A DNA stretch of 64,000 nt from contig CAZBVY010000001.1 of assembly GCA_964495475.1 (NCBI GenBank), forward strand, positions 4,239-68,238. The letters run 5' to 3'. The DNA is from an uncultured Pseudomonadales bacterium. Its GTDB lineage: Bacteria; Patescibacteriota; Microgenomatia; UBA1400; PJMF01. A program made the translations under genes and the position numbers. Shown in pieces: positions 1 to 38,777 of this stretch (its first letter is position 1; every line of letters starts with the position of its first letter). The notes under the pieces were generated by a model, which was given only the letters and a program-made list of their open reading frames with translations, was not told the origin of the DNA and did not search any database.

Positions 1-1309
1 TCTTCTGTGTGGCGGAGTTTTGCCTTAAGATCGGTTAACTTGGTTTGGAGTTCATTCTTTTGTTTAAGAAACATCTCATCATCGATTAAATCCCGGTAGC
101 GCATCTTGGTTAGGTTATCCAACTCAGCTTGGGTAGTTAACAAGGTTTTGCTTTGCATCTCATTAATCTTAGTTCTGTCGGCAATTTCCCGATCATTATT
201 TTCGTTTAAGACTTCTAAAGCCCATTTTCTAAAATCAGGAATGATGGTAATACTGGCTAGTTCCTGCTCAATTTGTCTTTCTAGTTTATCTAGTGGCACC
301 ATCTTGCGTTGGCTGCAGTTAACGGTCTTTTTCTTCCTGGTGCAGTGGTAGTAGGTGTATTCTTTGATTTTGCCGGTTTTCTTAATCAGTTTTTTCTTGG
401 TTTCAGCCGTATAAAGGCAACCACACTCGCCACAGCGAATAAATCCAGTAAAGGCAAAGTCGTGAGTTTTACGTCTGGGTTTACCTTTTCTGCCAAGTAA
501 CATTTGGACTCGATCAAACTCATCTAAAGTAATCATTGGTTCATGTTTACCCTCATACTGTCTGCCTTTATGTTCCAGCACTCCGGCATAGAAAATATTA
601 GTAAAGATTCGGTAAATACCGCTTCTGGATAAAGGTTTGCCACCAAGTCTCTTGGTTTTTCTGGTTAAGTAGCCCCAATCCTCATTGGCAATTTTGAGAA
701 TTTGAGGAGGAGTATAAGCGCCAGTCAGCATTAATTCCCACATTTTGGTGATTAAGTTAAACCGCTCCGTATCCTTAACAATAGTATTTTCTACCTTCTC
801 GTTGAGATAACCTGCAGGAGCGAGATTGGGCAACCAGCCCTTTTGTTAAGCTTGGTTTCTAAGCCTCGTTTTACATTTTTACTTAAGTCCAGGATGTACT
901 GATTCGAGCTAGCAGCTTCCACGCTGAAAATGATGACATTATCTCCTGGCAAGTATTCTCGGTCATAGGTTTGTATTGACTTGAGCACATTTTGTTGGAG
1001 CATCCAACTCAATTTTCCACTATCAACTGGATTTCTGGAGAGACGGTTAATCTGCCAGCAAAGGATCCCATCTGCCTCACCGTTCTCAACAGTCGCCATC
1101 ATTTCTTCAAATACAACTCGATTGCCTGGTTTTTTGGCCGATTTGGCTTCGGTAAAGGTTTTGACAATCCGAAGATTTTGATCTTTTGCCAGTTCTTTAA
1201 GTTTAGTAACTTGGCTCTCAATTGATTGCACCTGCCGATCTTCACTATCTGAAGACTTACGAGCATAGAGCACATAGCGCAGACTTTTCTTATTTTTTGG
1301 TATGGTCAT
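1..1309 (-). pseudogene. large serine recombinase, interrupted: resolvase catalytic domain ORF 791-1309; recombinase + zinc-ribbon + coiled-coil domains continue 845->1 in a different frame; 3' end beyond window
   Basis: ORF 791-1309 has the N-terminal resolvase fold (YARKSS...QxxSIESQ). The reverse strand of 1-845 translates to GWLPNLAPAGY...RCGECGCLYTAE...YYHCTRKKKTVNCSQRK plus a coiled coil, typical of a large serine recombinase C-terminus. The two parts are in different frames with a TAA at 846-848, so a +/-1 shift lies near the CCC/TTTT run at 835-848. Confidence 0.7.
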
Positions 1310-1373
1310 GTTCTGTTTTTTTAGCTACATAGTAGCGCAAGCGCTTAGTAATAGCTAGATTAAAAGATGTACT

Positions 1374-1955
1374 TTAGTCATCATTTTTTACTTCAGCTTT
1401 TTTCTGCCGTAACTTGTCATAGTAATCTTTTACAGCCTGATCAATAGCCATTCCCAATTCTTCTTCCTCCGGAGTCGGTGGTTTTTGCTCAGCTTCGTTA
1501 ATTCCGTTTACAAACTCGTGTTTACTGGTGGTTTCACCAAACTCAATCCGCATCATCTCCCAGAGAGTTTTAACCTCTTGAACTGTTGCCAGCTCGCCTG
1601 ACTTCATTTGCTTTTGAACTCGCTTGAGTTTCTCCCAAAAGATCTCGGAAATAAGGTAGGCTCGACGTTGTTTGATTTTTCTGAGCTTTTCATCCAGGTC
1701 CTGCATTTCTTCTGAGAGTCTGGCATCGGCTCGCTTGACCCACTGGTGTTTTTTACTCCAGCGCTCAATAGTAGCGTGGCTAGGCCTGTTCCCAAGTTTA
1801 TTCATAAAATCCGCCCTCACTTCGCCCGAAGCCTGCCCTAACTTGTCCCAAGTATCAAAAAGTTTCCGCAGGCTTCCCACTTCGCAGTACAACAGGAAAG
1901 CGGTGTACTGCTGCTCAGTCTCTCCTGACAACTTGGCTGTTATGATGTCATTCAT
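1374..1955 (-). CDS. hypothetical protein (mobile-element gene)
   Basis: 193-aa ORF co-oriented with the recombinase; no recognisable motif. Confidence 0.5.
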   Translation of the reverse strand: MNDIITAKLSGETEQQYTAFLLYCEVGSLRKLFDTWDKLGQASGEVRADFMNKLGNRPSHATIERWSKKHQWVKRADARLSEEMQDLDEKLRKIKQRRAYLISEIFWEKLKRVQKQMKSGELATVQEVKTLWEMMRIEFGETTSKHEFVNGINEAEQKPPTPEEEELGMAIDQAVKDYYDKLRQKKAEVKNDD

Positions 1956-2265
1956 AGCTTTCCTTTCTGCCTAAGCGGCCATAGACCATTTCGATATCCG
2001 GATCCGGGAAAGGTGGAGTGGTCATAGTTCTGTCCTCGATTAAGGCTTGGTGGTTTTGTTGATGTAATGTCCAAAAGAGTTTCATGTTGCCCGTCTTAAA
2101 AGCAACTTTCATCTTGAAGAATCGCCTGCAAGCAGTGGACCTTCTGACTTTACTGTAATACTGACTCCAAGCTCTTCGTCTTAGAGCTAATTCCTGATTG
2201 TCTATTAACACCTCAGGGATCATTTTTGGTTGTTTGTCAGTTGGTTGGTCTTTTTTAAACGCCAT
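1948..2265 (-). CDS. hypothetical protein
   Basis: 105-aa ORF, overlaps neighbours by a few nt (operon-like). Confidence 0.4.
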   Translation of the reverse strand: MAFKKDQPTDKQPKMIPEVLIDNQELALRRRAWSQYYSKVRRSTACRRFFKMKVAFKTGNMKLFWTLHQQNHQALIEDRTMTTPPFPDPDIEMVYGRLGRKESYE

Positions 2266-3004
2266 ATTTCTTTCCTCCTTTGCTGAGAGTGTTAGTCACA
2301 TTCATCAAGTCCCAGCCCTGCTCGCTCCAAAAGGGATCCTTGTCCATAGCATTTAAGCAGTGATTAATTTGCTCATCGCTAAAACCTGCTTTATACATTT
2401 TGTGCATAGCATTGATTTGTTTAGGAAAATTGACAAACTTTTTACCAAATTCCACTTCGACTGAGTGAATGTTTTCAATACAGTGATGATGTCCATGAGG
2501 ATTAGGGCATTTAATGCTTCTAGATTTATTTTTACTTTTTTGAGTGGAAATATTTTCTTCTTTACCTGGTTCTTCTTTTGTGTCCCTCATTTGGGACGAT
2601 GTTTGTCCCTCTGCTGCAACTATCTGTCTATTTGATTGAGATTGTCTCTGCTTTGGGACAATCTTTTGTGAGCGATAAAAGTCGGTATTGAGTTGCCATA
2701 AATCGACAATTGAGTAGGTCATGCGAGGTTTGGTTTTAGCGGGGATAGTGCCGGATTCTTTTATCCAACCTCTTTTAAGTAGGGACCGCAATAGTCGATA
2801 GACAGTATTTTTGCTAATCCCACACTTAGCGCCCAACTCTCTGGCTGAGTAGTAGACAGTGCCGTGTTCACCAGCGATACGCTTAAGGGTTAAGTAAAAA
2901 CCGCGCTCCTCTAAACTGGAGTGATTAATGATGTAGTTTGGGACAATGGAAAAATAGGCTTTGTCGCTAGATTCGTCTTTGATGTTAAAGGTTCTGTCTT
3001 TCAT
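2255..3004 (-). CDS. winged-helix DNA-binding protein, replication-initiator-like
   Basis: N-terminal HTH segment (ARELGAKCGISKNTVYRLLRSLLKRGWI) typical of phage/plasmid replication or primase loader proteins. Confidence 0.5.
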   Translation of the reverse strand: MKDRTFNIKDESSDKAYFSIVPNYIINHSSLEERGFYLTLKRIAGEHGTVYYSARELGAKCGISKNTVYRLLRSLLKRGWIKESGTIPAKTKPRMTYSIVDLWQLNTDFYRSQKIVPKQRQSQSNRQIVAAEGQTSSQMRDTKEEPGKEENISTQKSKNKSRSIKCPNPHGHHHCIENIHSVEVEFGKKFVNFPKQINAMHKMYKAGFSDEQINHCLNAMDKDPFWSEQGWDLMNVTNTLSKGGKKYGV

Positions 3005-3195
3005 AAGTTGAATATTTGTTGCTGGCGTTTAATAACTTGCTGGTATTGCTCTTTGGTGATGGGTTTGTAAATAAGCTGCATCATCCGGACCAATTTAAGA
3101 GCTTTTTCTAAAACATCTTCTTGGCTCAACTCCTCACCAAAGTGCTGTTTGTACAAAGCTTTGAAGGTGGTAAGTTGGGCTTCGCTGATTTTCAT
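3001..3195 (-). CDS. hypothetical small protein
   Basis: 64-aa ORF, translationally coupled. Confidence 0.35.
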   Translation of the reverse strand: MKISEAQLTTFKALYKQHFGEELSQEDVLEKALKLVRMMQLIYKPITKEQYQQVIKRQQQIFNL

Positions 3196-3458
3196 ACTGC
3201 TGATGAGAAAATTCTGTTTTTAAGCATCTTGATGTTTTCAAAGAACGAGCGGGCATCAACTGATAACCGACCAGCAAAATACTCCTGAGTGGCTTGTTCC
3301 AGCTCAGGAGTTTGGGGAAATATGAAACCTATTTTTCTAGAGTTAGTTCTATCCAGAGAGAGCAACTCAAAATGAAGCGTGGTCAGCGCCGCTACTAAAC
3401 CAATGTCATAGCTTAAAAAATGGGAATCGTTGGAAGTAGAATCAAATTTTCTGGTCAT
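3192..3458 (-). CDS. hypothetical small protein
   Basis: 88-aa ORF, first gene of the element operon. Confidence 0.35.
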   Translation of the reverse strand: MTRKFDSTSNDSHFLSYDIGLVAALTTLHFELLSLDRTNSRKIGFIFPQTPELEQATQEYFAGRLSVDARSFFENIKMLKNRIFSSAV

Positions 3459-3685: not shown

Positions 3686-5401
3686 CTATCTTCTTGAAAA
3701 GAAAAATTTATTATGATTTGGAGCAGTGACGAACCTAAAACTCAGATGACCCAAATGTACAAATCCATAAGTGGAGTTAATTTTTTCAACACTATTAAAA
3801 GTTACTCCGCTCAAAATTTGACCTATTTTGATATGAGCTAAAGTTTGAGCTTTTTGAGTTATATTATCAATTCCTTCTCTTAGTTCTGTTCTGAGGGCAT
3901 CAAGCTGATCGCCACATGGATATCCTTTAATTAGAATTGAACCATCTTCTAAAAGAATAATTCCCTCATAGATCATTTCAAGTGGAGAATATTGATTGAC
4001 AATCTGTTTTGCATTCGTAAATTGTGTTTCCGGCAATGGAATTACGTCTAACCCAACCTCACTATAGTGAGAGTAAGAAACTATTGTGGTATGAAGATCC
4101 TCAAGAGGTGGTAACCAATATTCCAGGTTTGGATTAGCTTCCTTAAGCTCTGAAATAAGTTGAGTCCTAAATTTACTAATTTCTTTTCTAAACCTAGCCG
4201 GAAAAGGGTATCCCAAAACTAATCCTGTAGGTCTGTAAAATGAAGGATGAGGGATCCATTCCGACGCTCTTTTTTGAAAAAAAGTTTCTTTTATGTGGTT
4301 AATTTTTTGAATACTTGTACCTACTTCGTCAACCCTTTGTTTAAGTGAGTCATAAACAGCAAACATTTTTCTAATAGCTGCGATATCTTCACTCCCAAAA
4401 TAATTTGCTTGCATAAAAGCAATTGTTGGCCCAATTCCTTCGATAGGAGTTGTGGGTTCTGCTGCTAGAATTTTTTTTACCCAGCTATTTGACGCATTGA
4501 AGGATTCGGGACTATTTTTCATAATTGTAGATAGAAATTGAGAAGCCTCAGGAAGGTAACAAGTAATTCCGTTTATTATATCCTCTTTTGAAACAGAGTG
4601 CCCGCTGACCAGATATTCTATAAAAGGAATTGTGGTGGGTTTTTCTACGATGCTCCTGATAACAGAAACAAAATCATCAATATACAGATAATCTCTAGTT
4701 TCTGCGGATTCACTTCTTGATTGATGTAAGAACGCTGATAAAGCCAGTCTGCCAATTGTTCTCCTGGTTGAACAAGTAGGTCCGTAACAACTTGATATTC
4801 TTAAAATTTTTGTTGATGGGTGCCTGGCTACAAGTGTTTCTCCAACTGCTTTAGATAGCTCATACACATTCGACTTAAGTGGCAGAGGATTTTTTTTAAG
4901 AAATTTTTGAATAATTTGTAGAGCTTTGTTCTCAAAAAAATTTTCTTCGAGTAAATTTTCTTTACTAGCATCAAAAAGGGACACAAGTTTTTCAATCCAT
5001 TCTCTTTGTTGTTTGTTTTTGATATTGTCTATCCTTTGGGTAGAAGCAAAAACAAATGTTAATTGCTTATTTTTACTCAGGTGAGTTAGTAAACCAGGAA
5101 AAAAAGAATTTAATAGGAATACGCTAGAAGCTGCTTCTGGACTGTAATTCAAACTTACCATCCCGGCCATATTTAGGATGATATCTGCGTTTTTAACAAT
5201 GTTCTTTAAAAAATCCGTATCAAAGTAGGTATCTACTTCTAGTAATTGCCTAGGTATATCACCGGATCTATAAAAAAATTTTCTTTTTGATCCTTTTCGC
5301 AACACAGATACTGGGGAAATGGATGAAAGATTAAGTGATAGAGCCATCCCTAAATCACCAGTAGAACCAAGAATATAAATTGACGAATTTTTGTTATTCA
5401 A
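3686..5401 (-). CDS. NAD-dependent epimerase/dehydratase domain fused to C-terminal 2H-phosphoesterase-like domain
   Basis: N-terminus has a Rossmann ILGSTGDLG motif, the YELSK catalytic dyad and a DYLYIDDFV motif. C-terminus has two H-x-T/S-x motifs (LHTTIV, GHLSF) characteristic of LigT/2H cyclic phosphodiesterases. Start overlaps the upstream ROK gene by 4 nt. Confidence 0.6.
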   Translation of the reverse strand: MNNKNSSIYILGSTGDLGMALSLNLSSISPVSVLRKGSKRKFFYRSGDIPRQLLEVDTYFDTDFLKNIVKNADIILNMAGMVSLNYSPEAASSVFLLNSFFPGLLTHLSKNKQLTFVFASTQRIDNIKNKQQREWIEKLVSLFDASKENLLEENFFENKALQIIQKFLKKNPLPLKSNVYELSKAVGETLVARHPSTKILRISSCYGPTCSTRRTIGRLALSAFLHQSRSESAETRDYLYIDDFVSVIRSIVEKPTTIPFIEYLVSGHSVSKEDIINGITCYLPEASQFLSTIMKNSPESFNASNSWVKKILAAEPTTPIEGIGPTIAFMQANYFGSEDIAAIRKMFAVYDSLKQRVDEVGTSIQKINHIKETFFQKRASEWIPHPSFYRPTGLVLGYPFPARFRKEISKFRTQLISELKEANPNLEYWLPPLEDLHTTIVSYSHYSEVGLDVIPLPETQFTNAKQIVNQYSPLEMIYEGIILLEDGSILIKGYPCGDQLDALRTELREGIDNITQKAQTLAHIKIGQILSGVTFNSVEKINSTYGFVHLGHLSFRFVTAPNHNKFFFSRR

Positions 5402-6414
5402 TTATTCCTTTCAGCAAGAAGTCCAATACCTATTAAACAATCATTGTCATCATTTATACCCAATGAAACCATGTTAGGAATTTCCCCCCTAGGCCTTTGA
5501 TAAAAATCATGTTTAGTGATACTTCTGCGTAATGAATCCAAATATTTTTGACCACAGTTGAGAGCAAATCCGCCAATAAAAACCCATTTGTCTACTCCAA
5601 TGGTCGCTGCTAGCTGAGAAATACATCCTGTGAGAATAAATGTTGTTTCGTCTAAGATTTCAGTTGTGAAGGGGTCATCCTGTTGGAGAGCTTCAATTAT
5701 ATGATAAGTGGTAATTTCTTCTGGATTTTTAACTAATTTCGATAGATAAGAGTTCTGGTAATTTGGATGGACACTAGCTTTTTTTTGTGCCAATCGTTGA
5801 ATTCCTCGTCCAGAACAAATTGCTCCCACATGCCCTTTTCCTCCGCAATCACACAACAAAGCATCTTCAGAAAAATCTACTCTAATATGTCCCATTTCCC
5901 CACCCAATCCTCTTCTATCTAACAAAACTTTACTACTTTTCACATCGTAAATTTTGCTACCAATTCCAGAACTAACAGTAATTGCCCCTAAAAAATCATG
6001 ATGTGCATATTCTTCCATTTGTGCATACCGTTCAATAGCAGCCGTTATATCGTTGGCTACTGTAATACTTAACGAAGGGCATTCTTCCGTTAGTTTTTCG
6101 AGAAGTGGGAAATTAAAGCCTCTTTCTCCCCATACTGTGCAAGCCTGGTGTACAATTCCATCTGCGGTCATCGGTGCAGGAAAAGAAATCCCAACTTGTG
6201 AAATTGAAGAATCTTTACTTAGATAAAAACGTATAACCTCAACCATTTTTTTGATGAGTTTATTTTGAAGCTCTTCGATGGTTAACTCTGGATATAAAAG
6301 AAAGCTGGGCGTTTTCTCTCTCTTCGGTTCGCTCACAATTCCTTCTGGACTTTTGAATAAACAAGAGCGAAAATGTGTGCCCCCAATATCAATAGCTATA
6401 ACTTCCTTTTTCAT
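5398..6414 (-). CDS. ROK-family sugar kinase
   Basis: IAIDIGGTHFR ATP-binding start and the CDCGGKGHVGAICSG zinc motif of ROK/glucokinase-like kinases. Confidence 0.75.
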   Translation of the reverse strand: MKKEVIAIDIGGTHFRSCLFKSPEGIVSEPKREKTPSFLLYPELTIEELQNKLIKKMVEVIRFYLSKDSSISQVGISFPAPMTADGIVHQACTVWGERGFNFPLLEKLTEECPSLSITVANDITAAIERYAQMEEYAHHDFLGAITVSSGIGSKIYDVKSSKVLLDRRGLGGEMGHIRVDFSEDALLCDCGGKGHVGAICSGRGIQRLAQKKASVHPNYQNSYLSKLVKNPEEITTYHIIEALQQDDPFTTEILDETTFILTGCISQLAATIGVDKWVFIGGFALNCGQKYLDSLRRSITKHDFYQRPRGEIPNMVSLGINDDNDCLIGIGLLAERNN

Positions 6415-7559
6415 ATAAATTTCTCCAGGCTCAGAAAATCTAATGCTTTCTTTATTTCGCTTTCAGAGCACTTATTGGTAAATAAGGCAGATCCTGTGCT
6501 GATAGGAAGAACTAAATTTAAATTTCCTGCACGGTGTTTTCTTATATCATCAAGAGAGTTAAATAAACTTTGATGTTCTATAAGAGGTTTATTAGAAAAT
6601 CCTATTGCTTTAGCAAGATTAATGATTCGATCAAAATCAGTTTCTTTTAATATTTTTCTTTGAAAAGCAATATGAGTTGAAATTAAGATGTCTAGTCCCA
6701 CAGCTTCTCCATGTAAGATAGAGTAATTATTTGAAGTCTCGATGTATGGACTAAAAGTATGTCCGAAATCCACAAGCCTTTCTAAAATATGTTCGTGCAA
6801 GTTGGGTTCCAGTTCTTCCATCATTAATTGAGCGGAAAGGTAATTAATTTGCTGAGTTTGTTCTCCAAAATTTTTCCGCAAATAATCCAAGTAACTTTCT
6901 TCAATTAATGAAAAAAGGAGATCGCTTCGAACTATAGCCATTTTAATCATTTCATACAAACCACATCTAATTTCTGTTAAAGTCAAGGTTGTTAAAAAGG
7001 ACTGATCTACGAATACAGAATGAGGAGCATAATAGTGTCCAAGCAGATTTTTGGATTCATCCAAATTTACTCCTACTTTTATACCAACTCCAGCATCTAT
7101 TAATCCAACAAGAGTAGTAGGAATACGAATGTAGGAAATTTTGCGTCTATAAAGGGCGGCTGCCAATCCAACAATATCCATCGTGATTCCACCACCTATT
7201 GCTATGAAAAAAGAATCTCTTTTTATTCCAAAATTTTGGGCAACTTTACAAATCTTAATAGCCGATGAGATGTCCTTTTGATTTTCGTTAGCATTATTAG
7301 TGATTATTTTGTAATCGATATTTTGACTGGAAAAAAATTTTGTTATCTCTGGACCGTACAATGATTCTACGTTGTGATCTATTATCACGAGGGCTTTTTT
7401 GTCTTGGCACAGTTGACTTAGTTGATTATTAGGTGAGCAATCGAAGACATCTTTCGTAAAATGAACTTTGTAGTCTATAGAAATGTTTCTTTTTAGGTGG
7501 ATGTGATTATTATGTGTTTTCAGCATTTTAGATTTTTCAGTAAATTGCCTCAAATACAA
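6411..7559 (-). CDS. 3-dehydroquinate-synthase-like sugar phosphate cyclase
   Basis: IAIGGGITMDIVGLAAA, PTTLVGLIDAGVGIKVGVN, DFGHTF and HGEAVGLD motifs of DHQS/DOIS/EEVS-type cyclases. Confidence 0.75.
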   Translation of the reverse strand: MYLRQFTEKSKMLKTHNNHIHLKRNISIDYKVHFTKDVFDCSPNNQLSQLCQDKKALVIIDHNVESLYGPEITKFFSSQNIDYKIITNNANENQKDISSAIKICKVAQNFGIKRDSFFIAIGGGITMDIVGLAAALYRRKISYIRIPTTLVGLIDAGVGIKVGVNLDESKNLLGHYYAPHSVFVDQSFLTTLTLTEIRCGLYEMIKMAIVRSDLLFSLIEESYLDYLRKNFGEQTQQINYLSAQLMMEELEPNLHEHILERLVDFGHTFSPYIETSNNYSILHGEAVGLDILISTHIAFQRKILKETDFDRIINLAKAIGFSNKPLIEHQSLFNSLDDIRKHRAGNLNLVLPISTGSALFTNKCSESEIKKALDFLSLEKFI

Positions 7560-7887
7560 GAATTTTTAAATTAGTAGATCCCATATTTTTTAGACCGTGA
7601 CTACTTCCACTATGAGTAATAACAGCATCTCCTGGACCAATTTCTTTTTCATGGCCATCAACTGTCATTAATCCTTTCCCTGAGATAATGTAGTAAATTT
7701 CTTCATTTCCTTCATGTTTGTGGTAACCAATAGTTGAATCAGGAAGAATTTCGGTTTCATGAAGAAACTGGATAGAACTTCTGAAATCCTCTTTTTTAAA
7801 GACCTCTCGGAAGATAATTGAACCTTCTCCATTATGGCAACGTTCTTCAATAACTTTACGAGCTTCTGAAGCCAAGTTGATATGCAT
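7537..7887 (-). CDS. cupin-domain protein
   Basis: Both cupin motifs are present (GYHKHEGNEEIYYIISGKG; GDAVITHSGSSHGLKN). First gene of the overlapping four-gene operon. Confidence 0.7.
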   Translation of the reverse strand: MHINLASEARKVIEERCHNGEGSIIFREVFKKEDFRSSIQFLHETEILPDSTIGYHKHEGNEEIYYIISGKGLMTVDGHEKEIGPGDAVITHSGSSHGLKNMGSTNLKILVFEAIY

Positions 7888-8004
7888 AAATTGATTCTTT
7901 CCCCTCTGTTTTGTTTAGGTAACAAAAATTGAGGTATACTATAGTGGTTAAATGAAAAGAAGCTAATTATGTAATGTTATACATTATATAACACAAATTT
8001 AACT

Positions 8005-8556
8005 ATGAAAATCTTTTTTTTAGCTAGCAATGCTGCAGACAAAGATTTGCGGTTTGCCTATACAAAAATTGTCCATACTTTAGAACTCGAAGGAAATGAG
8101 GTTTTTTCTCAACAACCTATTCCTAAAACCGAGGAAATTGAAAGTATGCCTAAAGAAAAAAGTGAAATGAGGGCAAAACAATTCTTCAGAAAGATGTTGC
8201 AATGTGATTGTGTAGTTTTTGAAGGAACGCGTTCAACAACTGGAGGTGGCTATTATTTATGCATGGCTCTACAACATAGTTTACCAGTTCTTTATCTTAC
8301 CCAGAATAAATATAGAGGCCTATACCTTGCATCATCGAACAGATTGTTGAAAATAAGACGATATGATTTAACCAAGCAGGATAATTTAAAAAACACTATT
8401 CAGGACTTTTTAAAATTTGCTACTAAAAAGAAGCTTTCTAATAGATTTAATTTAATGATTAGTGACTCAATGGATGAATTTTTGAATGAGATGTCTCGAA
8501 TTGATGGCATTAGCAAGGCTGATATTATTCGGGATCTTATTTATGAAAAAATGTAA
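8005..8556 (+). CDS. nucleoside 2-deoxyribosyltransferase-like (NDT/LOG-fold) domain fused to C-terminal ribbon-helix-helix
   Basis: MKIFFLAS...VVFEGTRSTTGGGYYLCMALQHSLPVLYL resembles the NDT-like Rossmann core. The C-terminal DEFLNEMSRIDGISKADIIRDLI is CopG/RHH-like. Divergent from the cupin operon. Confidence 0.45.
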   Translation: MKIFFLASNAADKDLRFAYTKIVHTLELEGNEVFSQQPIPKTEEIESMPKEKSEMRAKQFFRKMLQCDCVVFEGTRSTTGGGYYLCMALQHSLPVLYLTQNKYRGLYLASSNRLLKIRRYDLTKQDNLKNTIQDFLKFATKKKLSNRFNLMISDSMDEFLNEMSRIDGISKADIIRDLIYEKM

Positions 8557-8586: not shown

Positions 8587-8928
8587 TCAAAACGGTAACA
8601 GTTCTGAAGAATCAACTTTCAAAGCTTTGGCAATTTTGTATAGTGTGCGGATAGTAGGGTTGCGTTCACCGCGCTCAATCATGCCGATATACGTCCTATC
8701 TATGGACATCTTGAATGCTAGTTCTTCCTGAGTAACCCCTTTGCTTTTCCTGGTTCTCTGCAGTTTAGCTCCAAACTTTTTGAGAATGTGTTGGTGTGAT
8801 ATTGGTTTACCCATGTCTTTAGGGTAGTGACTCTCAGTCACATTCAACACGGACTCCTTGTCATCATTTATGCTATATTTAGCCAGGTGAGAGAAATAAT
8901 TTGAATTTGACATTTTGGGACCACCCAA
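8587..8928 (-). CDS. XRE-family HTH transcriptional regulator
   Basis: Cro/C1-type HTH: GVTQEELAFKMSIDRTYIGMIERGERNPTIRTLYKIAKAL. GC-rich gene; the true start may be the internal Met. Confidence 0.75.
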   Translation of the reverse strand: MGGPKMSNSNYFSHLAKYSINDDKESVLNVTESHYPKDMGKPISHQHILKKFGAKLQRTRKSKGVTQEELAFKMSIDRTYIGMIERGERNPTIRTLYKIAKALKVDSSELLPF

Positions 8929-8961
8929 GCTAACATCCCATCACTCTGAAAGGAGATTTAT

Positions 8962-9852
8962 ATGAAAATCATAAAAGGTTTAATCATCACAGCTTTACTT
9001 CTGACAGTGGCTGTCTTCGGTCTTAATGTCGTACGCTCAAAATACCAGTCATTTCGGACGCAACAGTTTGAAGGTCAAAAGATCCGGGAAATCAAAGAGA
9101 TTACAGAAAAGCTCAGTACCGACCCCAAATATCGGGATCACACCGCTCAAGCCACCAAGGAGTTAAGAGAAAAGCTATGTTCTTTGACCGCGCGGCCAGT
9201 TGAAGAGCGAGAAAAATCAATAGCCGCCATTCGTGACTTCCTGGAAATGCCGACTGTTGAAGTGGAATATGAATGTAGTAACGCTTTTTATAGTCTGGAA
9301 GAAGACCAATTTATCCCAGCAAAGGGTGAAACCTATACTGTCGGCTTAACTTACTTCATTGTCGATCCCGAGACTAATAATGTCTTACGGGTAGAAGAAA
9401 CTCCCGGGACTTGGGGATATAAAATCGATGGCAGTCGTTGGTTTAGTGAAGGCAAAGAATATGATTACTCCGCCAATTATTCTCAGGAGGAAGTCGAACA
9501 AATTGTCAGAAGCTTTATTGCCAAACAATCCTCATCTATTGGCAACATTGATCTGAGCAGATTGACGCTGGAGACTGGTAAGAAGGATGGTGATAACGGT
9601 AGGGTAAATTATTTCTTCATTTGGAGAGGTGAAGCGCAAAAAGTCCAACATAATCCACCGCTTGAAACTTGTAGTGAGGACTTAAATAAGGACGTTGAGG
9701 GTTTGTACTATAACGGCAACGGTGTTCCTTGTATTAAGGTTTATGAGTCGACTGAACAACCAAGCTTAAGTATTGCCTTTACTAATGGTGGTCAGCTGAT
9801 TAATTTCTCCAATGAGTTGAATGGACCGGTGAGTAGAGCCACTACCAGATAA
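8962..9852 (+). CDS. secreted/membrane-anchored hypothetical protein
   Basis: N-terminal signal/TM segment, 296 aa, GC about 45-48% (foreign). Confidence 0.55.
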   Translation: MKIIKGLIITALLLTVAVFGLNVVRSKYQSFRTQQFEGQKIREIKEITEKLSTDPKYRDHTAQATKELREKLCSLTARPVEEREKSIAAIRDFLEMPTVEVEYECSNAFYSLEEDQFIPAKGETYTVGLTYFIVDPETNNVLRVEETPGTWGYKIDGSRWFSEGKEYDYSANYSQEEVEQIVRSFIAKQSSSIGNIDLSRLTLETGKKDGDNGRVNYFFIWRGEAQKVQHNPPLETCSEDLNKDVEGLYYNGNGVPCIKVYESTEQPSLSIAFTNGGQLINFSNELNGPVSRATTR

Positions 9853-10047
9853 TTTTATGAAAAAGCTACATCGCTTTATTGCTCTCAAGCTCTTGGTGTT
9901 TATCGAAATGCAGGTTAAGCTGTTAAAACGTTTGGTTTTCCGTTCTTCACAATGTCCCTAAGAAACGGTTTGACGGCCACATTAGGTATAACTTCTCCAA
10001 CCAGGCAGCAAACGCCCCACAAAAACGGCCACGGTGGCAAACCGTAT

Positions 10048-13000
10048 TCAGTTTTTGATAATGTCTATTAGTTTTTCCTTAACTGAATCGATATTAAGGG
10101 AAGTAATCTCACTAGCAGCAAGCGTAATTTGTGCCGCTTTCTTTATTCCTTCAACAGTCGAATCTTTACAAGCATCCAAAACATCTTTTGATTCTTGGTC
10201 ATGCCATGTCGCAAATAAATGCCCTGCCAAGTTTGTCCATCTTTTAATTAGGAGGTCCACAAGATAATCATCAAGTGTCCAGCAAAAAATAGAAAAATCC
10301 TTTAATGACGATGTTAGTAAAGCGCTAGCATACAATGAGTATTTCCTATCATCGTCTTGGGTTAATATGTGTATTGCCGCAACTGCTCTGAGTGCCACGT
10401 CTGCCGTTCCATCTTGAATAAGATGTCGAGCTTTTTCTGTGGTCATAGTAGGAGCTTCTTGGACAAAATCGACCCATTCTTTGTATTTATCTAAGCCAAG
10501 CTTCTTTCCTGATGCTTCCCATTTACTCCAGGGTACTTCCTCAAAAGTATGTGATGTTAAAAATGAAAGAAGGGTAAATGCCAATGTGTGAGCAATTGTA
10601 GCCCCATGCGTCTTCAGTGCTTCTTGAATGTCTTGGGAGCTTATTTTCCTCATTGCTATATGCCGATTTTCAATTCCGATACTTACTTGTGTTAGAGTAA
10701 AAAAGTAAATAATGTCTTCGACCAATTTATCTAAATTACCGCTCTTTAAAGAGCGAACAATTTCAACCTTTTTGGTTTCAGCTTGAAAAAGTATTGGCAA
10801 AGTGTCGAATATATTCATTAACTTGTTGAAAGCGTTATTTTTTACTTGAAGCTCAACCTCAACTTCCGCAAGGAAACTCAATAAAGTCTCTGGGGGTGTA
10901 ATGGGTAGTTCTCTAAGTTTCTCGCTGAAATCTGTCGGGCTATGTGAGCCAGCAACAGGTTCAACATAGTCTAAGCCTACACTTCGATATTCTGGGTTTA
11001 TATTTTTCTGGAAATAAATTAGTGTATTGGATGTCATTTTTAACAAGCCAAGCGACCTAAGATTGGTTTTTGGACTGGGTAGTTTGGGTAAGGTTTCTAT
11101 TACATGGACAAAAATATCAATGCATTTTTCGTATTTGCCGAGCTTCCATAAGGAAAAGCCGTAATCAGCTAAACATTGAGTTGCGTATAATTTTTCATTT
11201 TGTCTTTTGGCGAGTTCTGAGGCTTCAAGAAAATGAGTCGAAGCAGTTTTCCAGTCGTTTAAATTTGCAAATGCAACAGCAGCATCGCGATAGGCAAAAG
11301 CTGCCGTTAAGTAGTTCTTCTTTGCTAGCTTTGGCAGCACCTCTTTCCATCTTTTCAATGCAAGAGAAAAATCTTTATTAATGAAAGCCATTTTGGCGTG
11401 GTAATTAATTAATTCCGGCAGCTCTCCTAATTCTTTTTTTCCAGCAGAAATAGCTTGTTCTGCTCCTGCTTTGTCATTGGTGTACTCGTTCTTAATAATT
11501 GCAATTGCACGAACAGCTAGAGCCGAGACACTCAGAGCCTTCTTCTTAGCGAAAAAGACCTGTATTTTTTCTAGTGCAATAAGTGCTTCTTCCCAATCTG
11601 GCTTATCTTTATCTATCTGATCCAACCAAACATTATCAACAACCCTTTTTGAGAGCATTGAATCAGTATTGATAGCATCAATAAGTTTTTGGCTATCAGG
11701 GAATTTGTCGAGCGCTGACATTAACCCTTCAATATTTGATGAGTTGATTCGTTTAGTAATAGCTACTTCGGGAATTATTTCAGCCCACGAAGTTTTTGGG
11801 TCACCCCAAGGTTGCTTAAAGATAGAGTTGATTTCTGGATTCTTATCCAGAAAGTCATATGCCGCCAATATCCACTCAACACATTTCTCTATGGGGATAT
11901 TTAGTGATTCGTACCTGAATACACTTAGGAAAAACATGAATGGGAAGAATTTTGCCTCTTTCTGCTTTTGGAAAGGTCCTTTTGCAGTAAAGTTTTTGGC
12001 ATCGTTAAACCATGCATCTGCAACTGCTAATGCCGACTTCATGTCTTTAGTTTCTACAGCAATGGTAAATTGAATAAATCTAAACATTAAGTTGAGGATT
12101 TCGTCCTGACTAATAGCAGGCTTATTCGTCCCGATATGCACAACTGTTAGCCATTCAAGGTATGGATAAATTAAAGCCTTGTGTTTGTTGTCTATCGACT
12201 GGAAGGCAGCAAAAGCGAAGGATAAGATCCGACCAGAGCCACTAGCCAACCCATGAAGAAATATGTTTGATAAATCTCTCGGAACCAATGTTTTTGATAA
12301 ATATGACTCTCCAGCTAAAGCATGAAGATTTTTAATCTCTTGTTCAGAGAAATTCCCTTGGGAGGAGTTATCTAGTAAAGGGCTTAAACTAAAATATTCT
12401 TCTGTAATTTGCTCCACGTATGGTCCAACTAATTGGTTAAAAAATATTGCTGGGGTTTTAATTGATGTTGGATAGGCGGCTAGAGCAATTGCATTTTTTT
12501 GTTTAAAAGATCCCGAAAGAACACTCAGTCTTAGTAACAAGTCTCGTGCTTCTGGTGAAGGTAATTCTTGATCTAGATTACTTACCGTTTCTCGTTTGAC
12601 AGCGCTTAGCTCTTCAGTCTTAAAAATTATTTTTGACTTGTCCCATCCTTCTTCTTTTAATCTGCGAATGCGCGCGTGAACAAGTTGAGGATGGGACTTT
12701 GTAGTAAACTCTAGATCTTTAATCCATAGATTTAGTTCCGATTGAGGACAATCATTAAGTTGAAGTAGTTCCTTGATTTCTTCAGTGGTAAATACTGGAA
12801 TATGGAGTTCGTTATTAGTGTTTAATCCCAACCTTGAAGCCAAAGAAGAGGGTATCTTTTTTTGAGAGGTAACGATAATCTTTTTGCCATGGGATCTCAA
12901 ATAAAGAACAAACTGTTCAAAAGTATCGGCATAAATAGCGTAATCTTGGCCAAAATTAATATCATCCAAAATAATATTTTGGGGAGCGTGCGCGTCAGTA

Positions 13001-14085
13001 TTACAAAGCCCATTTATGATGGCCTTGATATATTCGCTTTTTATGCCTCGAAAACTAATCCGTTCCCAGTTATTTCGTTCGGCCTCAACTGCTTGTAAAG
13101 ACAGGATTGATTTTCCCATGCCACTAGAACCAGTTATTGCGAGGACGTCCAAAGTTTTTAGTCTTCCGAGAATTGTTTGTTTTAACGACTTTCTAGTAAC
13201 AAACAATTTTCTGTCTGGAATATGAGGAGCGGAAATCTTAGTATCAATCGTGTTTCCACCTGGGTTTGGAGGGATTAAATTACCTTGACTGAGAACAATA
13301 GCTGTTAATTGAGAAGCTGCATTTCTTAACAATTCCAACTCTCCTTTGGACACCGGTGTGGTGGTAAGAGCTTCAAACTCTCTAATGAAATCTGCTTTGC
13401 TCAAACTTCGTTCTTTAATTTCTTTTTTGCACACTGTTTTCAAAACAGTATCAAAAAGTAAAGGTGCTGTCTTTTTTGATTCATCTGCCTTTAGACTATG
13501 TTTATCTCCATGCACAATAAGTAAGTCTTCTATAGATTTTCGGAGAGCAGACAAGCTATCTCTTTCTGTTAACCAGCTAATTGGAAGTACTAAATTATCT
13601 AGTATTTCTTGATCGGTTGCAGTTTTTAGATATTCAACCAGATCAGTAGGGAAGCCATCAATCTGCTTCAAGAACTTTCTCAGTGGCTTTACTTGGTTGC
13701 TATTCTTGCAGTGCTCCCAATAGTCCAACCCCCTTTGACCACTAAATGGGTTGCCTTGTTCTTGCCCTCTTGCGGCAGTGGTGAAAAATCGAAATATTAC
13801 ATGCCTTTGGTCGTTTTTCTTTAATGTCCAATAGTCAATAATCGCTTTAATAACTTCTGCTGACCTTAATGTAATGTTTTTTGATAAATGTTTTACCTGA
13901 GTAGTTGTCGACGAGGAGGTGGACAGCAAATCAATGTCTTCTGCCCCTTCCAGGTATAAAATTTCGCCATCTTCTAGATTAATCCATGCATGCAAGCTTT
14001 CCCATGCTTGGTATACATACCCTTGAAAGATATCGGTGGCTTGTCTTTTGGCATCTGCCGCTAGGGGTTGCATTTCATCTGTCAT
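10048..14085 (-). CDS. antiviral-STAND-like protein: N-terminal restriction-endonuclease-like (Cap4/DUF4297-type) domain + P-loop STAND NTPase + C-terminal TPR array
   Basis: N-terminal GYVYQ...EDIDLL...QVKH nuclease-like motifs. Walker A AITGSSGMGKS, Walker B IILDD. Long C-terminal TPR-like repeats. 1345 aa. Confidence 0.7.
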   Translation of the reverse strand: MTDEMQPLAADAKRQATDIFQGYVYQAWESLHAWINLEDGEILYLEGAEDIDLLSTSSSTTTQVKHLSKNITLRSAEVIKAIIDYWTLKKNDQRHVIFRFFTTAARGQEQGNPFSGQRGLDYWEHCKNSNQVKPLRKFLKQIDGFPTDLVEYLKTATDQEILDNLVLPISWLTERDSLSALRKSIEDLLIVHGDKHSLKADESKKTAPLLFDTVLKTVCKKEIKERSLSKADFIREFEALTTTPVSKGELELLRNAASQLTAIVLSQGNLIPPNPGGNTIDTKISAPHIPDRKLFVTRKSLKQTILGRLKTLDVLAITGSSGMGKSILSLQAVEAERNNWERISFRGIKSEYIKAIINGLCNTDAHAPQNIILDDINFGQDYAIYADTFEQFVLYLRSHGKKIIVTSQKKIPSSLASRLGLNTNNELHIPVFTTEEIKELLQLNDCPQSELNLWIKDLEFTTKSHPQLVHARIRRLKEEGWDKSKIIFKTEELSAVKRETVSNLDQELPSPEARDLLLRLSVLSGSFKQKNAIALAAYPTSIKTPAIFFNQLVGPYVEQITEEYFSLSPLLDNSSQGNFSEQEIKNLHALAGESYLSKTLVPRDLSNIFLHGLASGSGRILSFAFAAFQSIDNKHKALIYPYLEWLTVVHIGTNKPAISQDEILNLMFRFIQFTIAVETKDMKSALAVADAWFNDAKNFTAKGPFQKQKEAKFFPFMFFLSVFRYESLNIPIEKCVEWILAAYDFLDKNPEINSIFKQPWGDPKTSWAEIIPEVAITKRINSSNIEGLMSALDKFPDSQKLIDAINTDSMLSKRVVDNVWLDQIDKDKPDWEEALIALEKIQVFFAKKKALSVSALAVRAIAIIKNEYTNDKAGAEQAISAGKKELGELPELINYHAKMAFINKDFSLALKRWKEVLPKLAKKNYLTAAFAYRDAAVAFANLNDWKTASTHFLEASELAKRQNEKLYATQCLADYGFSLWKLGKYEKCIDIFVHVIETLPKLPSPKTNLRSLGLLKMTSNTLIYFQKNINPEYRSVGLDYVEPVAGSHSPTDFSEKLRELPITPPETLLSFLAEVEVELQVKNNAFNKLMNIFDTLPILFQAETKKVEIVRSLKSGNLDKLVEDIIYFFTLTQVSIGIENRHIAMRKISSQDIQEALKTHGATIAHTLAFTLLSFLTSHTFEEVPWSKWEASGKKLGLDKYKEWVDFVQEAPTMTTEKARHLIQDGTADVALRAVAAIHILTQDDDRKYSLYASALLTSSLKDFSIFCWTLDDYLVDLLIKRWTNLAGHLFATWHDQESKDVLDACKDSTVEGIKKAAQITLAASEITSLNIDSVKEKLIDIIKN

Positions 14086-14095
14086 AAAATTCGTG

Positions 14096-14287
14096 TCAAG
14101 GTTTGGGGTTCAAGATCTTTTCTATCTCTTCTGGCTTATACCGTCTATCGCCGCGCTCATTTACTCGTATTGACTTGAGTTTCCCTGCCTTGTCCCACCG
14201 CCTCAAGGTTTCGACATGAACGTTCAAAACCTCAGCTGCTTGGCGGATAGTTAAAAGTTTTGGTAGAGTGGTGTTTTTCTTCGACAT
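14096..14287 (-). CDS. excisionase/AlpA-family HTH DNA-binding protein
   Basis: LLTIRQAAEVLNVHVETLRRWDKAGKL matches the Xis-type HTH_17 signature. Confidence 0.65.
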   Translation of the reverse strand: MSKKNTTLPKLLTIRQAAEVLNVHVETLRRWDKAGKLKSIRVNERGDRRYKPEEIEKILNPKP

Positions 14288-14340
14288 AACTCAACTTAAT
14301 TATACAATTTTTCGATGAAAAAGGTTATACTTAACCTGAC

Positions 14341-14643
14341 ATGAAATCAATTTTTACCATCATTGTATTTGTTGTTTTGGGTTACTTCCTCTACAGCAGG
14401 TTTATAAAATATCCATACAGATATGTGGGGTATTTTTACCCTAGTATTGATATTCTTAGTGAATGGGTAGAGTCCGAACCAATTGGATCAGTTGACGAGT
14501 GCCGTGAGTGGGCGGAAGAGATGGCTGATGAGTACGAGGTGGCTTATAGTGGCAACTACGACTATGAGTGCGGTAAAGACTGCTACAAAGGTGACCCATA
14601 TTATCAAGGGCTCAAATATACTTGCCACACCTCAGTGGATTAG
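14341..14643 (+). CDS. small membrane-anchored Cys/Tyr-rich hypothetical protein
   Basis: N-terminal TM helix; the C-terminal half is very GC-rich (foreign). Confidence 0.45.
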   Translation: MKSIFTIIVFVVLGYFLYSRFIKYPYRYVGYFYPSIDILSEWVESEPIGSVDECREWAEEMADEYEVAYSGNYDYECGKDCYKGDPYYQGLKYTCHTSVD

Positions 14644-14863
14644 TGCAATGAAAAAAGTTTATTTCTGACAGTCCCATAATGTGTTTTCTTAGCCTGTGAA
14701 GCAAAGATTTGCTTGTGGCTGTAGATCCGGAATATGGATATAGCCTGGAGTATTTTGTATAATTGTTCTAACATCGTTCACGATGTCCCGCATCCTAGGA
14801 TTCAAACTATAACGATGCAATTTGTGTTTTTCCTTTCTATTTCATCTCAAATAAATAGTTATT

Positions 14864-14924
14864 TTGACTAAATATATAGGTCCTATTCGCTTTGTTACTT
14901 GACTAAAGTATATATATATATAGG
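14864..14924. repeat. two direct copies of TTGACTAAA(G)TATATA..TAGG, the second containing a (TA)8 microsatellite
   Basis: Copies at 14864-14880 and 14899-14924, about 35 nt apart, upstream of the 73-aa gene. Confidence 0.6.
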
Positions 14925-14987
14925 TGTATATTATCGGTTGCTGTTGATTCAGCAAATCTCAAAATTCTGTTTTATGGAGGTGTAATT

Positions 14988-15209: not shown

Positions 15210-15221
15210 TAAATTCAAACT

Positions 15222-15255
15222 GAGGGCAGAGAAATCTGCCCTCTTTTACGTTTTT
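15222..15255 (+). terminator. rho-independent terminator
   Basis: GAGGGCAG-agaaat-CTGCCCTC hairpin followed by TTTTACGTTTTT. Confidence 0.65.
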
Positions 15256-15265
15256 AAGAAATATA

Positions 15266-38756: not shown

Positions 38757-38777
38757 CTCTACATTTTTAAAGAAAAA

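Follow-up and report, generated by a model that had tools for sequence, protein, structure and literature searches.

We asked what a DHQS-like cyclase is doing in a tight gene cluster of a Woesebacteria-like Patescibacteria bacterium with a tiny genome, and whether its neighbours form one pathway with it. The cluster occupies 3686-7887 of the window, the 64-kb stretch of DNA that was analysed, where the minus strand encodes a cupin, the cyclase, a ROK kinase and a 571-aa SDR fusion. These four ORFs lie exactly where they were first placed, and the early view that the genome is CPR-like agrees with a SufB that shares 85% identity with a protein of Candidatus Woesebacteria. Together with a divergent fifth gene they form a compact, conserved module. 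Judged from its sequence, we read this module, with a probability of roughly 0.68, as a compact gene cassette that would make a C7 cyclitol (carbasugar).

7537-7887, minus strand: metal-binding cupin of 116 aa that opens the operon (Pfam Cupin_2, 4e-17)
6411-7526, minus strand: predicted EEVS-type sedoheptulose-7-phosphate cyclase, 371 aa (DHQ_synthase and DHQS_C)
5398-6414, minus strand: ROK-family sugar/cyclitol kinase, 338 aa (Pfam ROK, 6.6e-30)
3686-5401, minus strand: SDR and 2H-like fusion, whole ORF, 571 aa
4385-5401, minus strand: extended-SDR domain, NAD(P)-dependent oxidoreductase (fusion residues 1-339)
3686-4384, minus strand: predicted 2H-phosphoesterase (LigT/CPDase)-like domain (fusion residues 340-571 and stop codon)
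7888-8004, no strand: intergenic region between the divergently oriented genes, containing a promoter-like site that could serve the operon, and an inverted repeat
8005-8556, plus strand: putative DNPH1-like and ribbon-helix-helix gene, 183 aa, fifth conserved gene, divergently transcribed

A conserved operon with a divergent fifth gene

The original prediction had the four genes overlapping by 4-23 nt. This holds for two junctions of 4 nt each: ATGA, where the ROK ATG lies on the cyclase stop codon, and TTGA, where the TTG start of the SDR fusion lies on the ROK stop codon. The 23-nt overlap between cupin and cyclase probably does not hold. The longest cyclase ORF (6411-7559) begins at TTG 7559, but gene callers and all homologues place the start at ATG 7526, so that a 10-nt gap is likelier; gaps of 3-10 nt in relatives are consistent with this. 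No terminator-like site was found within the operon region, and this absence, with the two 4-nt overlaps, supports an operon serving one pathway.

All five genes occur together at two other loci (L005 and L089) and part of the set at four (L090, L093, L094 and L096). Mobile-element-like stretches of foreign composition flank the cassette on both sides, as might be expected if the genes had come together by chance or as mobile-element cargo rather than as one pathway. We consider this highly improbable: the same set recurs in unrelated genomic surroundings and in two different arrangements, fusions tie cupin to cyclase and SDR to 2H domain, and the cassette and the housekeeping genes have equal GC3.

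The fifth gene encodes a putative ligand-sensing regulator, with a DNPH1/nucleoside-deoxyribosyltransferase-fold domain and a C-terminal ribbon-helix-helix. Top Foldseek matches of its AlphaFold2 model (mean pLDDT 91.8) were DNPH1/Rcl and nucleoside deoxyribosyltransferase, at target-normalised TM-scores of at most 0.8, and Pfam returned weak RHH_1 and Nuc_deoxyrib_tr matches. Homologues adjoin the cyclase in L005 (32% identity, 1e-23) and L089; since the family counts 315 cluster representatives, it is not specific to the cassette. The intergenic region holds, on the minus strand, a promoter-like site (TTTTCA, a 17-nt spacer and TATAAT, extending to 7983) that agrees at 10/12 positions; shuffled sequence yields matches of this kind at least as often. 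An inverted repeat (7967-7977 and 7981-7991, 91% complementary) overlaps the operon's -10 box, and the equivalent stretches in L005 and L089 contain palindromes, GTATAATTATAC and TTGTATAATTATACAA, readable as back-to-back extended -10 boxes. Site and repeat hint at a possible control region for the operon.

Identity of the cyclase

Pfam matched the cyclase to DHQ_synthase (8.8e-33) and DHQS_C (9.6e-20), and the NAD and zinc motifs ascribed to it at the outset are both present, as GGGITMD and as E/H/H metal ligands. Were it a true 3-dehydroquinate synthase (AroB), the cluster would be a remnant of aromatic amino-acid biosynthesis, and names do point that way: the Pfam and top-scoring NCBIfam models are called DHQ synthase, and relatives carry the label '3-dehydroquinate synthase' in some database sources. 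The scores against the two aroB NCBIfam models (209.6 and 211.8) were nevertheless too low for their cut-offs (305 and 333, respectively). DHQS-specific residues are swapped (K250 to M, N268 to D, H275 to P and K356 to H), and a scan of ORFs throughout the 64 kb turned up no aro or other shikimate gene, as had been remarked. Among PDB entries, ValA (EEVS, 4P53) ranked first (2e-65, 224 bits), followed by DDGS (3e-60, 207 bits), with true DHQS at about 1e-39.

The original prediction, that this is not a true AroB, had proposed a phylogeny and a comparison of active-site residues, and both bear it out. By neighbour-joining, 188/200 bootstrap replicates placed the cyclase in a group of EEVS and DDGS, apart from DHQS, EVS and DOIS. 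Its fingerprint, RRDKNEKMERDHPHH, compared at 15 active-site positions with reference sequences from the supplement of PMC4426668, is identical to that of the characterised EEVS AcbC and CetA at 15/15 positions and unlike those of EVS, DDGS, DOIS and DHQS; ValA, PrlA, zebrafish EEVS and B. kirkii EEVS deviate from it at variable site 277 only. An AroB identity is refuted at the sequence level by the cut-offs, the residue swaps, the bootstrap and the lack of aro genes in the 64 kb, leaving this reading with almost no probability.

Within the EEVS and DDGS group, the Patescibacteria cyclases form a clade of their own (190/200), whose branching relative to characterised EEVS and DDGS has bootstrap support of 16-45%. 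The tree leaves this clade unplaced between the two; the basis of the EEVS call is the fingerprint. A DDGS, as in mycosporine/gadusol-type sunscreens, would accord with the missing split and with a PDB score near that of ValA. DDGS, however, have Ala and Thr where our cyclase and all characterised EEVS have Asp and His (ValA D281 and H360). An EVS, producing 2-epi-valiolone, would resemble DHQS at sites 263, 281, 288 and 360, with K, N, H and I/V there. Neither O-methyltransferase nor ATP-grasp genes were found near the cassette. We therefore regard a DDGS or EVS as very unlikely, and the residues support a predicted EEVS-type sedoheptulose-7-phosphate cyclase.

Cupin, kinase and fusion protein

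Of all its neighbours, the cyclase is accompanied most constantly by the cupin, more so than by the kinase. Both were named correctly at first sight. The cupin metal ligands, HxH...E...H (H55, H57, E61/E62 and H97), are kept in at least 85% of 33 cyclase-adjoining cupins from many phyla. The gene lies immediately upstream of the cyclase in L005-L008, L089, L094 and L095, its neighbourhood is conserved in Bacillota, Methanomassiliicoccales, Acidobacteriota, Actinomycetota and Paraburkholderia, and one protein (P0104; 33% identity, 2e-19) is a natural cupin-cyclase fusion. Among solved structures it comes closest to that of TM1287 (1O4T, 2e-16), whose function is unknown. The presence of the cupin in strictly anaerobic archaea disfavours a role as an oxygenase.

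The kinase carries the ROK motifs DIGGT, GGEMGH and CDCGGKGH...C, and a DNA-binding domain is absent from its 338 aa. ROK glucokinases of the ordinary type in the PDB match it at 4e-15 at best. Closer homologues adjoin cyclases in Rummeliibacillus (36%, 1e-56) and Methanomassiliicoccales (33%, 1e-49), and a ROK homologue lies within 8 kb of the cyclase, often directly downstream, in about half of 80 genome loci; the loci nearest ValA had no match to this ROK at E<1e-5. The claim that a cyclase paired with a ROK kinase is a hallmark of cyclitol pathways agrees with this frequency, with AcbM and ValC, which are ROK-like cyclitol kinases (PMC9200736), and with the core of Burkholderia cyclitol clusters, composed of EEVS, ROK and a phosphatase (bioRxiv 10.1101/2022.09.27.509721).

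Kinase and cupin could also act before the cyclase. The ROK protein would then phosphorylate salvaged sedoheptulose, mannose or another hexose or heptose, and the cupin, as a metal-dependent sugar-phosphate isomerase, would prepare the substrate from which cyclase and SDR yield a cyclitol, possibly a C6 one made from a hexose phosphate. Patescibacteria rely heavily on salvage, and free sugars are the usual ROK substrates, as in the NCBIfam matches of this protein (glucokinase, ManNAc kinase and allose kinase). The cupin is weakly similar to a putative sugar-phosphate isomerase (3L2H, 5e-07), mannose-6-phosphate isomerase (7ZVM, 5e-06) and Pfam MannoseP_isomer (0.0019), relatives with which a role upstream of the cyclase would fit too. 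Substrate calls in the cyclase superfamily can also fail, since EboD, a relative once thought to use sedoheptulose 7-phosphate, in fact uses mannose 6-phosphate (PMC12904256). We still judge this order of events unlikely: the substrate-contacting fingerprint is that of bona fide sedoheptulose-7-phosphate-using EEVS, cupin and cyclase also occur in free-living actinomycetes that make their own sedoheptulose 7-phosphate and in loci without any ROK, and the characterised ROK-like kinases from EEVS clusters act on cyclitols (PMC9200736).

For the fourth gene, taken to be an epimerase/dehydratase fusion, the N-terminal extended SDR was upheld, and the partner, left unnamed at the time, is by its modelled fold a highly divergent 2H-phosphoesterase-like domain. 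The SDR half matched Pfam Epimerase (8.7e-07, confined to the C-terminal part of that region) and NAD_binding_4 (5.7e-05), and a profile search recovered RmlD and sugar-nucleotide epimerases/dehydratases weakly (best 2e-06). Across 15 homologues GSTGDLG, S120-T121-Q122 and Y180 never vary, and K184 hardly does. The C-terminal half had no significant Pfam or PDB match by sequence; the top Foldseek PDB matches of its AlphaFold2 model (mean pLDDT 92.9) were all 2H enzymes, drCPDase 5h7e first (6.9e-06), with 1iuh, 1vdx, Usb1, ASCC1, AKAP18 and LigT further down.

As in the 2H superfamily (LigT, CPDase, Usb1, AKAP18 and ASCC1), a first motif, H-x-T, lies on the expected strand, with H437 invariant and T439 nearly invariant in 15 sequences. 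The second, H523-x-K525, has an invariant Lys and a His replaced by Tyr in 2/15, giving H/Y-x-K as opposed to H-x-S/T. Because this motif is non-canonical and its His not invariant, the domain may not be an enzyme. It also differs from the superfamily in matching no 2H Pfam family by sequence, and in its context, which is an SDR as fusion partner and a sugar-like pathway rather than RNA/nucleotide metabolism. The fusion has 16 relatives, each of about 570 aa. For seven of them the contig is as long as that of a cyclase match; every one with a visible neighbourhood lies in this cassette, and the ROK and SDR-2H genes are adjacent or overlapping in every case.

A proposed route and its known counterparts

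In the C7 cyclitol route that we favour, the cyclase, with bound NAD+ and Zn2+/Co2+, would turn sedoheptulose 7-phosphate from the pentose-phosphate pathway into 2-epi-5-epi-valiolone, releasing phosphate. We infer the roles of the cupin, SDR and 2H domain, and the product, as follows. For the cupin, the likeliest role is a direct one on the ketocyclitol, with non-redox enolate chemistry leading to C-2 epimerisation (as with the unrelated ValD and CetB) or dehydration. By analogy to AcbM and ValC, the ROK kinase would add a phosphate to the cyclitol, with its C-7 hydroxymethyl group as the probable site. The SDR half may then reduce the ring ketone, or oxidise and re-reduce; next, the 2H-like domain may act on the phosphate ester, hydrolysing or forming a cyclic or diester phosphate, or may just bind the phospho-intermediate. 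Control of the promoter region probably falls to the DNPH1-fold and ribbon-helix-helix protein, which would respond to a phospho-sugar-like ligand.

The early acarbose and validamycin steps use AcbC/ValA (EEVS), AcbM/ValC kinases, AcbO/ValD epimerases and AcbL/AcbN oxidoreductases (PMC9200736). The cassette shares the AcbC fingerprint, the combination of EEVS, ROK-family kinase and NAD(P)-dependent oxidoreductase and, as we propose, a scheme that runs through phosphorylated cyclitol intermediates. It differs in having a metal cupin, not AcbO or a VOC-family enzyme, in the likely epimerase/dehydratase slot, an oxidoreductase fused to a 2H-like domain, and a Patescibacterium with a reduced genome, rather than an actinomycete, as host. 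It contains no nucleotidyltransferase, pseudo-glycosyltransferase or aminotransferase, and thus no acarbose- or validamycin-like end product is encoded; a HAD phosphatase is also absent from it.

The Burkholderia leaf-symbiont clusters for streptol glucoside ('S') and kirkamide ('K') likewise join EEVS, ROK and a phosphate-removing enzyme in a reduced-genome symbiont with adjoining mobile elements (bioRxiv 10.1101/2022.09.27.509721), and a Paraburkholderia locus (L050) has homologous cupin and ROK genes. Those clusters have 8-10 genes, with a HAD phosphatase and aminotransferases, whereas the cassette has five, and its only phosphate-handling candidate is the 2H-like domain. Uncharacterised triads of Bacillota, Methanomassiliicoccales, Eisenbacteria, Vulcanimicrobiota and Acidobacteriota (L009, L010, L012, L014 and L021) have the three homologous genes in the order cupin, cyclase, ROK, and their cyclases are the nearest tree neighbours of the Patescibacteria clade. 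Neither the SDR-2H fusion nor the ribbon-helix-helix gene is present in these triads. For this bacterium, candidate end products of the cassette are a glycosidase-inhibiting pseudosugar, a solute and a building block of the cell envelope.

Gene layout and the divergent intergenic region

Four minus-strand ORFs and one divergent ORF make up the cassette (protein-family matches from Pfam):

3686-5401, minus strand: 571-aa protein; Epimerase, 8.7e-07, the weaker match
5398-6414, minus strand: ROK protein, 338 aa; ROK, 6.6e-30
6411-7559 as the longest ORF, minus strand: DHQS-like cyclase; DHQ_synthase, 8.8e-33, and DHQS_C, 9.6e-20
7537-7887, minus strand: cupin, 116 aa; Cupin_2, 4e-17
8005-8556, plus strand: divergent 183-aa ORF; homologues adjoin the cyclase in the relatives' loci L005 and L089

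The four minus-strand ORFs that the original prediction placed over 3686-7887 are present exactly as it described them. Its overlaps of 4-23 nt stand at two junctions, cyclase/ROK (ATGA) and ROK/571-aa gene (TTGA), each of 4 nt. The 23-nt overlap of cupin and cyclase requires the cyclase to begin with the TTG at 7559. The start that gene callers chose on four independent contigs from the same organism, and that all homologues use, is the ATG at 7526, which leaves a 10-nt gap between the two genes (3-10 nt in relatives); the four-ORF observation is therefore confirmed with one correction.

The model of the 183-aa protein (pLDDT 91.8) matches DNPH1 and nucleoside deoxyribosyltransferase over its first ~140 residues, and its end is predicted to form a strand-helix-helix of the kind characteristic of ribbon-helix-helix DNA binders. 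With 315 representatives, the family is fairly large. The 117-nt intergenic region that separates this gene from the cupin contains a -35/-10-like site with an inverted repeat over the -10 box, and the corresponding regions of relatives carry palindromic back-to-back TGTATAAT elements. Taken together, the site, the repeat and the relatives' palindromes support a putative divergent promoter region, and weakly suggest an operator. Shuffled sequence gave promoter-like matches at least as often, and a search for a terminator-like site found none. The perfect palindromes GTATAATTATAC and TTGTATAATTATACAA (L005 7600-7625; L089 1975-2000) can be read as back-to-back extended -10 promoter elements.

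Class of the cyclase

The cyclase has the two-domain architecture of DHQS-like enzymes, and the NAD and zinc motifs attributed to it are there: the Gly-rich NAD-binding motif GGGITMD, and metal ligands at the equivalents of E213, H284 and H300 (Glu/His/His; numbers of cyclase sites here and below are ValA positions unless marked as DHQS). It had been argued that this is not a true aroB, and the family models agree, with scores below the equivalog cut-offs of both aroB NCBIfams (TIGR01357, 209.6 vs 305; NF004852, 211.8 vs 333). Among solved structures, the best match was ValA, an EEVS (4P53, 2e-65), followed by the Anabaena DDGS (5TPR, 3e-60) and, far behind, true DHQS (~1e-39). NCBI labels several relatives 'sedoheptulose 7-phosphate cyclase', one of them from a Patescibacteria MAG.

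To place the protein among the related cyclases, we used a fingerprint of 15 sites, obtained by mapping DHQS active-site residues onto ValA through alignments, as distinct from the published 14-site table. Sequences of characterised enzymes were the source data of PMC4426668 (eLife 2015).

Residues of cyclase classes at the 15 fingerprint sites
Window protein: RRDKNEKMERDHPHH
AcbC, CetA (EEVS): 15/15 as window protein
ValA, PrlA, zebrafish (D. rerio) EEVS, B. kirkii EEVS: 14/15; sole difference at variable site 277
EVS (Amir_2000): MRDKNEKKRRNHHHI
DDGS: RRDKNEKMDRAHPHT
DOIS: FRDKNEKKGLEHHHL
DHQS: xRDKNEKKR(A/R)NHHH(V/K)

This check, which the original prediction had proposed, matched the protein to AcbC and CetA at every site. 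At 281 and 360 it has Asp and His, where DDGS has Ala and Thr; at 263 and 288 it has Met and Pro, where DHQS and EVS have Lys and His. On this fingerprint we rejected DDGS and EVS. All four DHQS residues for the DAHP carboxylate and phosphate (DHQS K250, N268, H275, K356) are replaced.

The proposed phylogeny was answered in part. In a neighbor-joining tree of 70 sequences with 200 bootstrap replicates, the Patescibacteria cyclases formed a coherent clade (190/200), and the cyclase fell inside an EEVS+DDGS superclade that left EVS, DOIS and DHQS outside (188/200). Branching within the superclade reached bootstrap values of only 16-45%, so the EEVS assignment rests on the fingerprint. Model cut-offs, fingerprint, tree and context together rule out an AroB/shikimate identity, and, as had been claimed, no shikimate-pathway genes were found among the ORFs scanned within the 64-kb window. 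We conclude that the protein is, on sequence criteria, an EEVS-type sedoheptulose-7-phosphate cyclase and not AroB, with the caution that EboD, at first taken to act on sedoheptulose 7-phosphate, proved to cyclise mannose 6-phosphate (PMC12904256).

An EEVS-like subgroup that includes Methanomassiliicoccales carries Arg in place of His at 360 (loci L010, L059, L068 and L069; proteins P0092, P0096 and P0112); its members possibly have a different product or substrate anomer.

Partners of the cyclase

A cyclase paired with a ROK kinase had been put forward as the hallmark of cyclitol pathways, and the pairing is borne out by known clusters and by gene neighbourhoods. AcbM and ValC, both cyclitol kinases, belong to the ROK-like proteins (PMC9200736). 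In Burkholderia, the common core of the cyclitol clusters consists of an EEVS, a ROK protein and a HAD phosphatase, with flanking mobile elements (bioRxiv 10.1101/2022.09.27.509721). We searched the window proteins by tblastn against the 80 genome loci listed with related cyclases, a mostly actinomycete set that does not contain the closest relatives. About half of these loci had a ROK homologue no more than 8 kb from the cyclase, often directly downstream of it, and about one third had a cupin homologue nearby. The complete cupin-cyclase-ROK triad occurred, among the loci listed, in Rummeliibacillus, a Methanomassiliicoccales archaeon, Eisenbacteria, Vulcanimicrobiota, Acidobacteriota and Paraburkholderia. 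In the window protein, the ROK domain covers residues 6-311 of 338 with no N-terminal DNA-binding domain, and the translation shows the ATP motif (DxGxT), the ExGH sugar motif and the Cys/His zinc motif. In the main rival explanation, which we consider rather unlikely, this kinase and the cupin would precede the cyclase in the pathway, serving sugar salvage and isomerisation, rather than act on its product.

In every examined Patescibacteria relative the cupin gene immediately precedes that of the cyclase, except at a Saccharibacteria locus (L017), where a search for a cupin found none. At least 85% of 33 cyclase-associated cupins retain its His/His/Glu/His metal ligands, and one relative (P0104, 520 aa) is a natural fusion with the cupin N-terminal and the cyclase after it. 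The reverse order also exists: the actinomycete EEVS just before CetA in supplement 1 of PMC4426668 has a C-terminal cupin-like extension. Oxygenase chemistry is unlikely for the cupin, because the triad is present in strict anaerobes (L010). The cupin is a widely conserved EEVS partner; a search of the literature for cupins linked to valiolone gave nothing relevant and no description of a cupin family accompanying EEVS genes.

The 571-aa protein had been called an NAD-dependent epimerase/dehydratase fusion. Its N-terminal 339 residues are indeed an extended SDR with intact GxxGxxG, Ser/Thr and YxxxK motifs, only distantly similar to RmlD-like reductases and sugar-nucleotide epimerases/dehydratases. 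In 15 homologues G12-x-T14-G15-x-L17-G18, S120/T121 and Y180 are invariant, and K184 nearly so. The C-terminal 232 residues gave no significant match in Pfam or PDB profile searches; their structure model (pLDDT 92.9) adopts a 2H-phosphoesterase (LigT-like) fold. All of the best PDB structure matches were 2H proteins (CPDase, LigT-like, Usb1, ASCC1, AKAP18), with E-values down to 6.9e-06, probability 1.00 and target-normalised TM-scores of 0.55-0.64. The first 2H motif, H-x-T, is kept, with H437 invariant and T439 nearly invariant in 15 sequences. The second is H523-x-K525, with Tyr for His in 2 of the 15 and an invariant Lys, and departs from the canonical H-x-S/T pair, so that canonical 2H catalysis is uncertain. 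The domain may work like a 2H enzyme, but we do not file it as a canonical member.

Only 16 relatives of the fusion, all of ~570 aa, were present among 5.8 billion proteins, and a metagenome scan with the fusion protein gave 5 loci only. Named sources are Patescibacteria/Woesebacteria, except for one MAG labelled Scalindua. The SDR-2H fusion is unprecedented. Wherever its surroundings are visible, its gene adjoins the ROK gene and the cupin-cyclase pair. We conclude that, at the sequence level, the EEVS-type cyclase, metal cupin, ROK kinase and SDR-2H fusion form one conserved, translationally coupled unit.

Truncated or stand-alone copies of the 2H-like domain occur on two long contigs with no cyclase cassette (L091 7287-8246; L092 7150-8666, which looks frameshifted).

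Other relatives vary the set. One locus (L094 1-15128) has a second ROK gene after the cyclase and lies among YfhO, GT1, HAD, GT2, DUF2079 and PTPS_related genes, a glycosylation setting which hints that the product could end on the cell surface. Three loci of other Patescibacteria pair cupin and cyclase with a DegT/DnrJ/EryC1 aminotransferase (L006 5184-13896, L007 2623-10917, L008 4681-13548). Directly beside the pair is a giant class-II aminoacyl-tRNA-synthetase paralogue (986-989 aa; 620 aa in L006), with a normal-sized AsxRS/LysRS-like gene also nearby, and the cyclases have Gln at site P288. This set looks like an aminocyclitol variant with an aminoacyl-tRNA-synthetase-like ligase. In another relative (L095 1936-3336), the pair is followed by a gene for a phosphoglucomutase/phosphomannomutase, a kind of enzyme that could move phosphate on a pseudosugar.

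Genomic setting and proposed pathway

A CPR-like host had been suggested, in keeping with SufB, which shares 85% identity with a Candidatus Woesebacteria protein and 65-70% with those of other Patescibacteria. The content of the rest of the window is typical of a Patescibacteria chromosome (Suf genes, RpoA, a release factor, FtsEX, MetK and many family-less ORFs). A SAM riboswitch (43676-43780, minus strand, 51.7 bits) lies directly upstream of metK (42473-43585). ARAGORN called a tRNA-Ser with anticodon ACT, with A at position 34 (38672-38757, plus strand; Rfam tRNA, 51.8 bits), which is unusual beside the regular tRNA-Ser(GCT) at 33563 and tRNA-Ser(GGA) at 46801.

The cassette sits between two mobile-element-like stretches, 1-3458 and 8587-15736. 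The first contains a split serine integrase running off the window start, a TerS/HEPN-like protein, a DnaD/O-like replication initiator and DUF5659; the second contains an XRE repressor, an HTH_17 gene and proteins of 296 and 1345 aa. The ORFs for these two (8962-9852, plus strand; 10048-14085, minus strand) had no Pfam or PHROG match, and sit between the XRE repressor and an excisionase-like HTH gene. GC3 was 0.32-0.50 in the flanks, 0.22-0.28 in the five cassette genes and 0.22-0.26 in housekeeping genes: the flanks are compositionally foreign and the cassette is host-like. Cassette sites in relatives are unrelated, between pilus genes in L005 and within an envelope-glycosylation locus in L094. 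The IMG/VR scan gave only two distant cyclase relatives, on contigs classed as viral (L097 and L098, 36-38% identity); together with the host-like GC3, this led us to reject a phage-borne auxiliary gene.

In the proposed pathway, the cyclase would convert sedoheptulose 7-phosphate to 2-epi-5-epi-valiolone, and the cupin would alter this ketone product without redox chemistry, by epimerisation or dehydration. The ROK protein would phosphorylate the cyclitol in the manner of AcbM and ValC, the SDR would reduce the ketone and the 2H-like domain would handle the phosphate ester. Acarbose/validamycin-type clusters have a nucleotidyltransferase, a pseudo-glycosyltransferase and an aminotransferase, whereas no cyclitol genes of these kinds were found in the cassette or its immediate flanks. 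The cyclitol reading of the original prediction is supported: the cassette would provide the early, EEVS/ROK steps of cyclitol chemistry in a minimal form specific to Patescibacteria.

A more far-reaching reading, to which we give a probability of roughly 0.3, involves two enzyme types not recognised so far. Patescibacteria would make a phosphorylated C7 carbasugar not described before, perhaps in the form of a cyclic phosphate or phosphodiester, for their episymbiotic lifestyle; the metal cupin would be the general first tailoring enzyme of EEVS pathways in bacteria and archaea; and the substrate of the SDR fused to a divergent 2H phosphoesterase would be a cyclitol phosphate rather than RNA or nucleotides. 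In a literature search on Patescibacteria or CPR and cyclitols, none of the best-ranked results connected the two. Some C7 cyclitols, acarbose and validamycin among them, are glycosidase inhibitors of clinical and agricultural importance. If this reading is true, the product could be, for example, a host-directed glycosidase-inhibiting sugar mimic or a component of the cell envelope. Two enzyme leads have wider reach: the EEVS-accompanying cupin family in many phyla, and a 2H-like domain recruited to sugar-analogue metabolism. To our knowledge, the general view of Patescibacteria is that they have hardly any biosynthetic capacity; a pseudosugar cassette that is conserved and native in composition would therefore be among the group's few dedicated small-molecule pathways, and a candidate contributor to envelope biology or host interaction.
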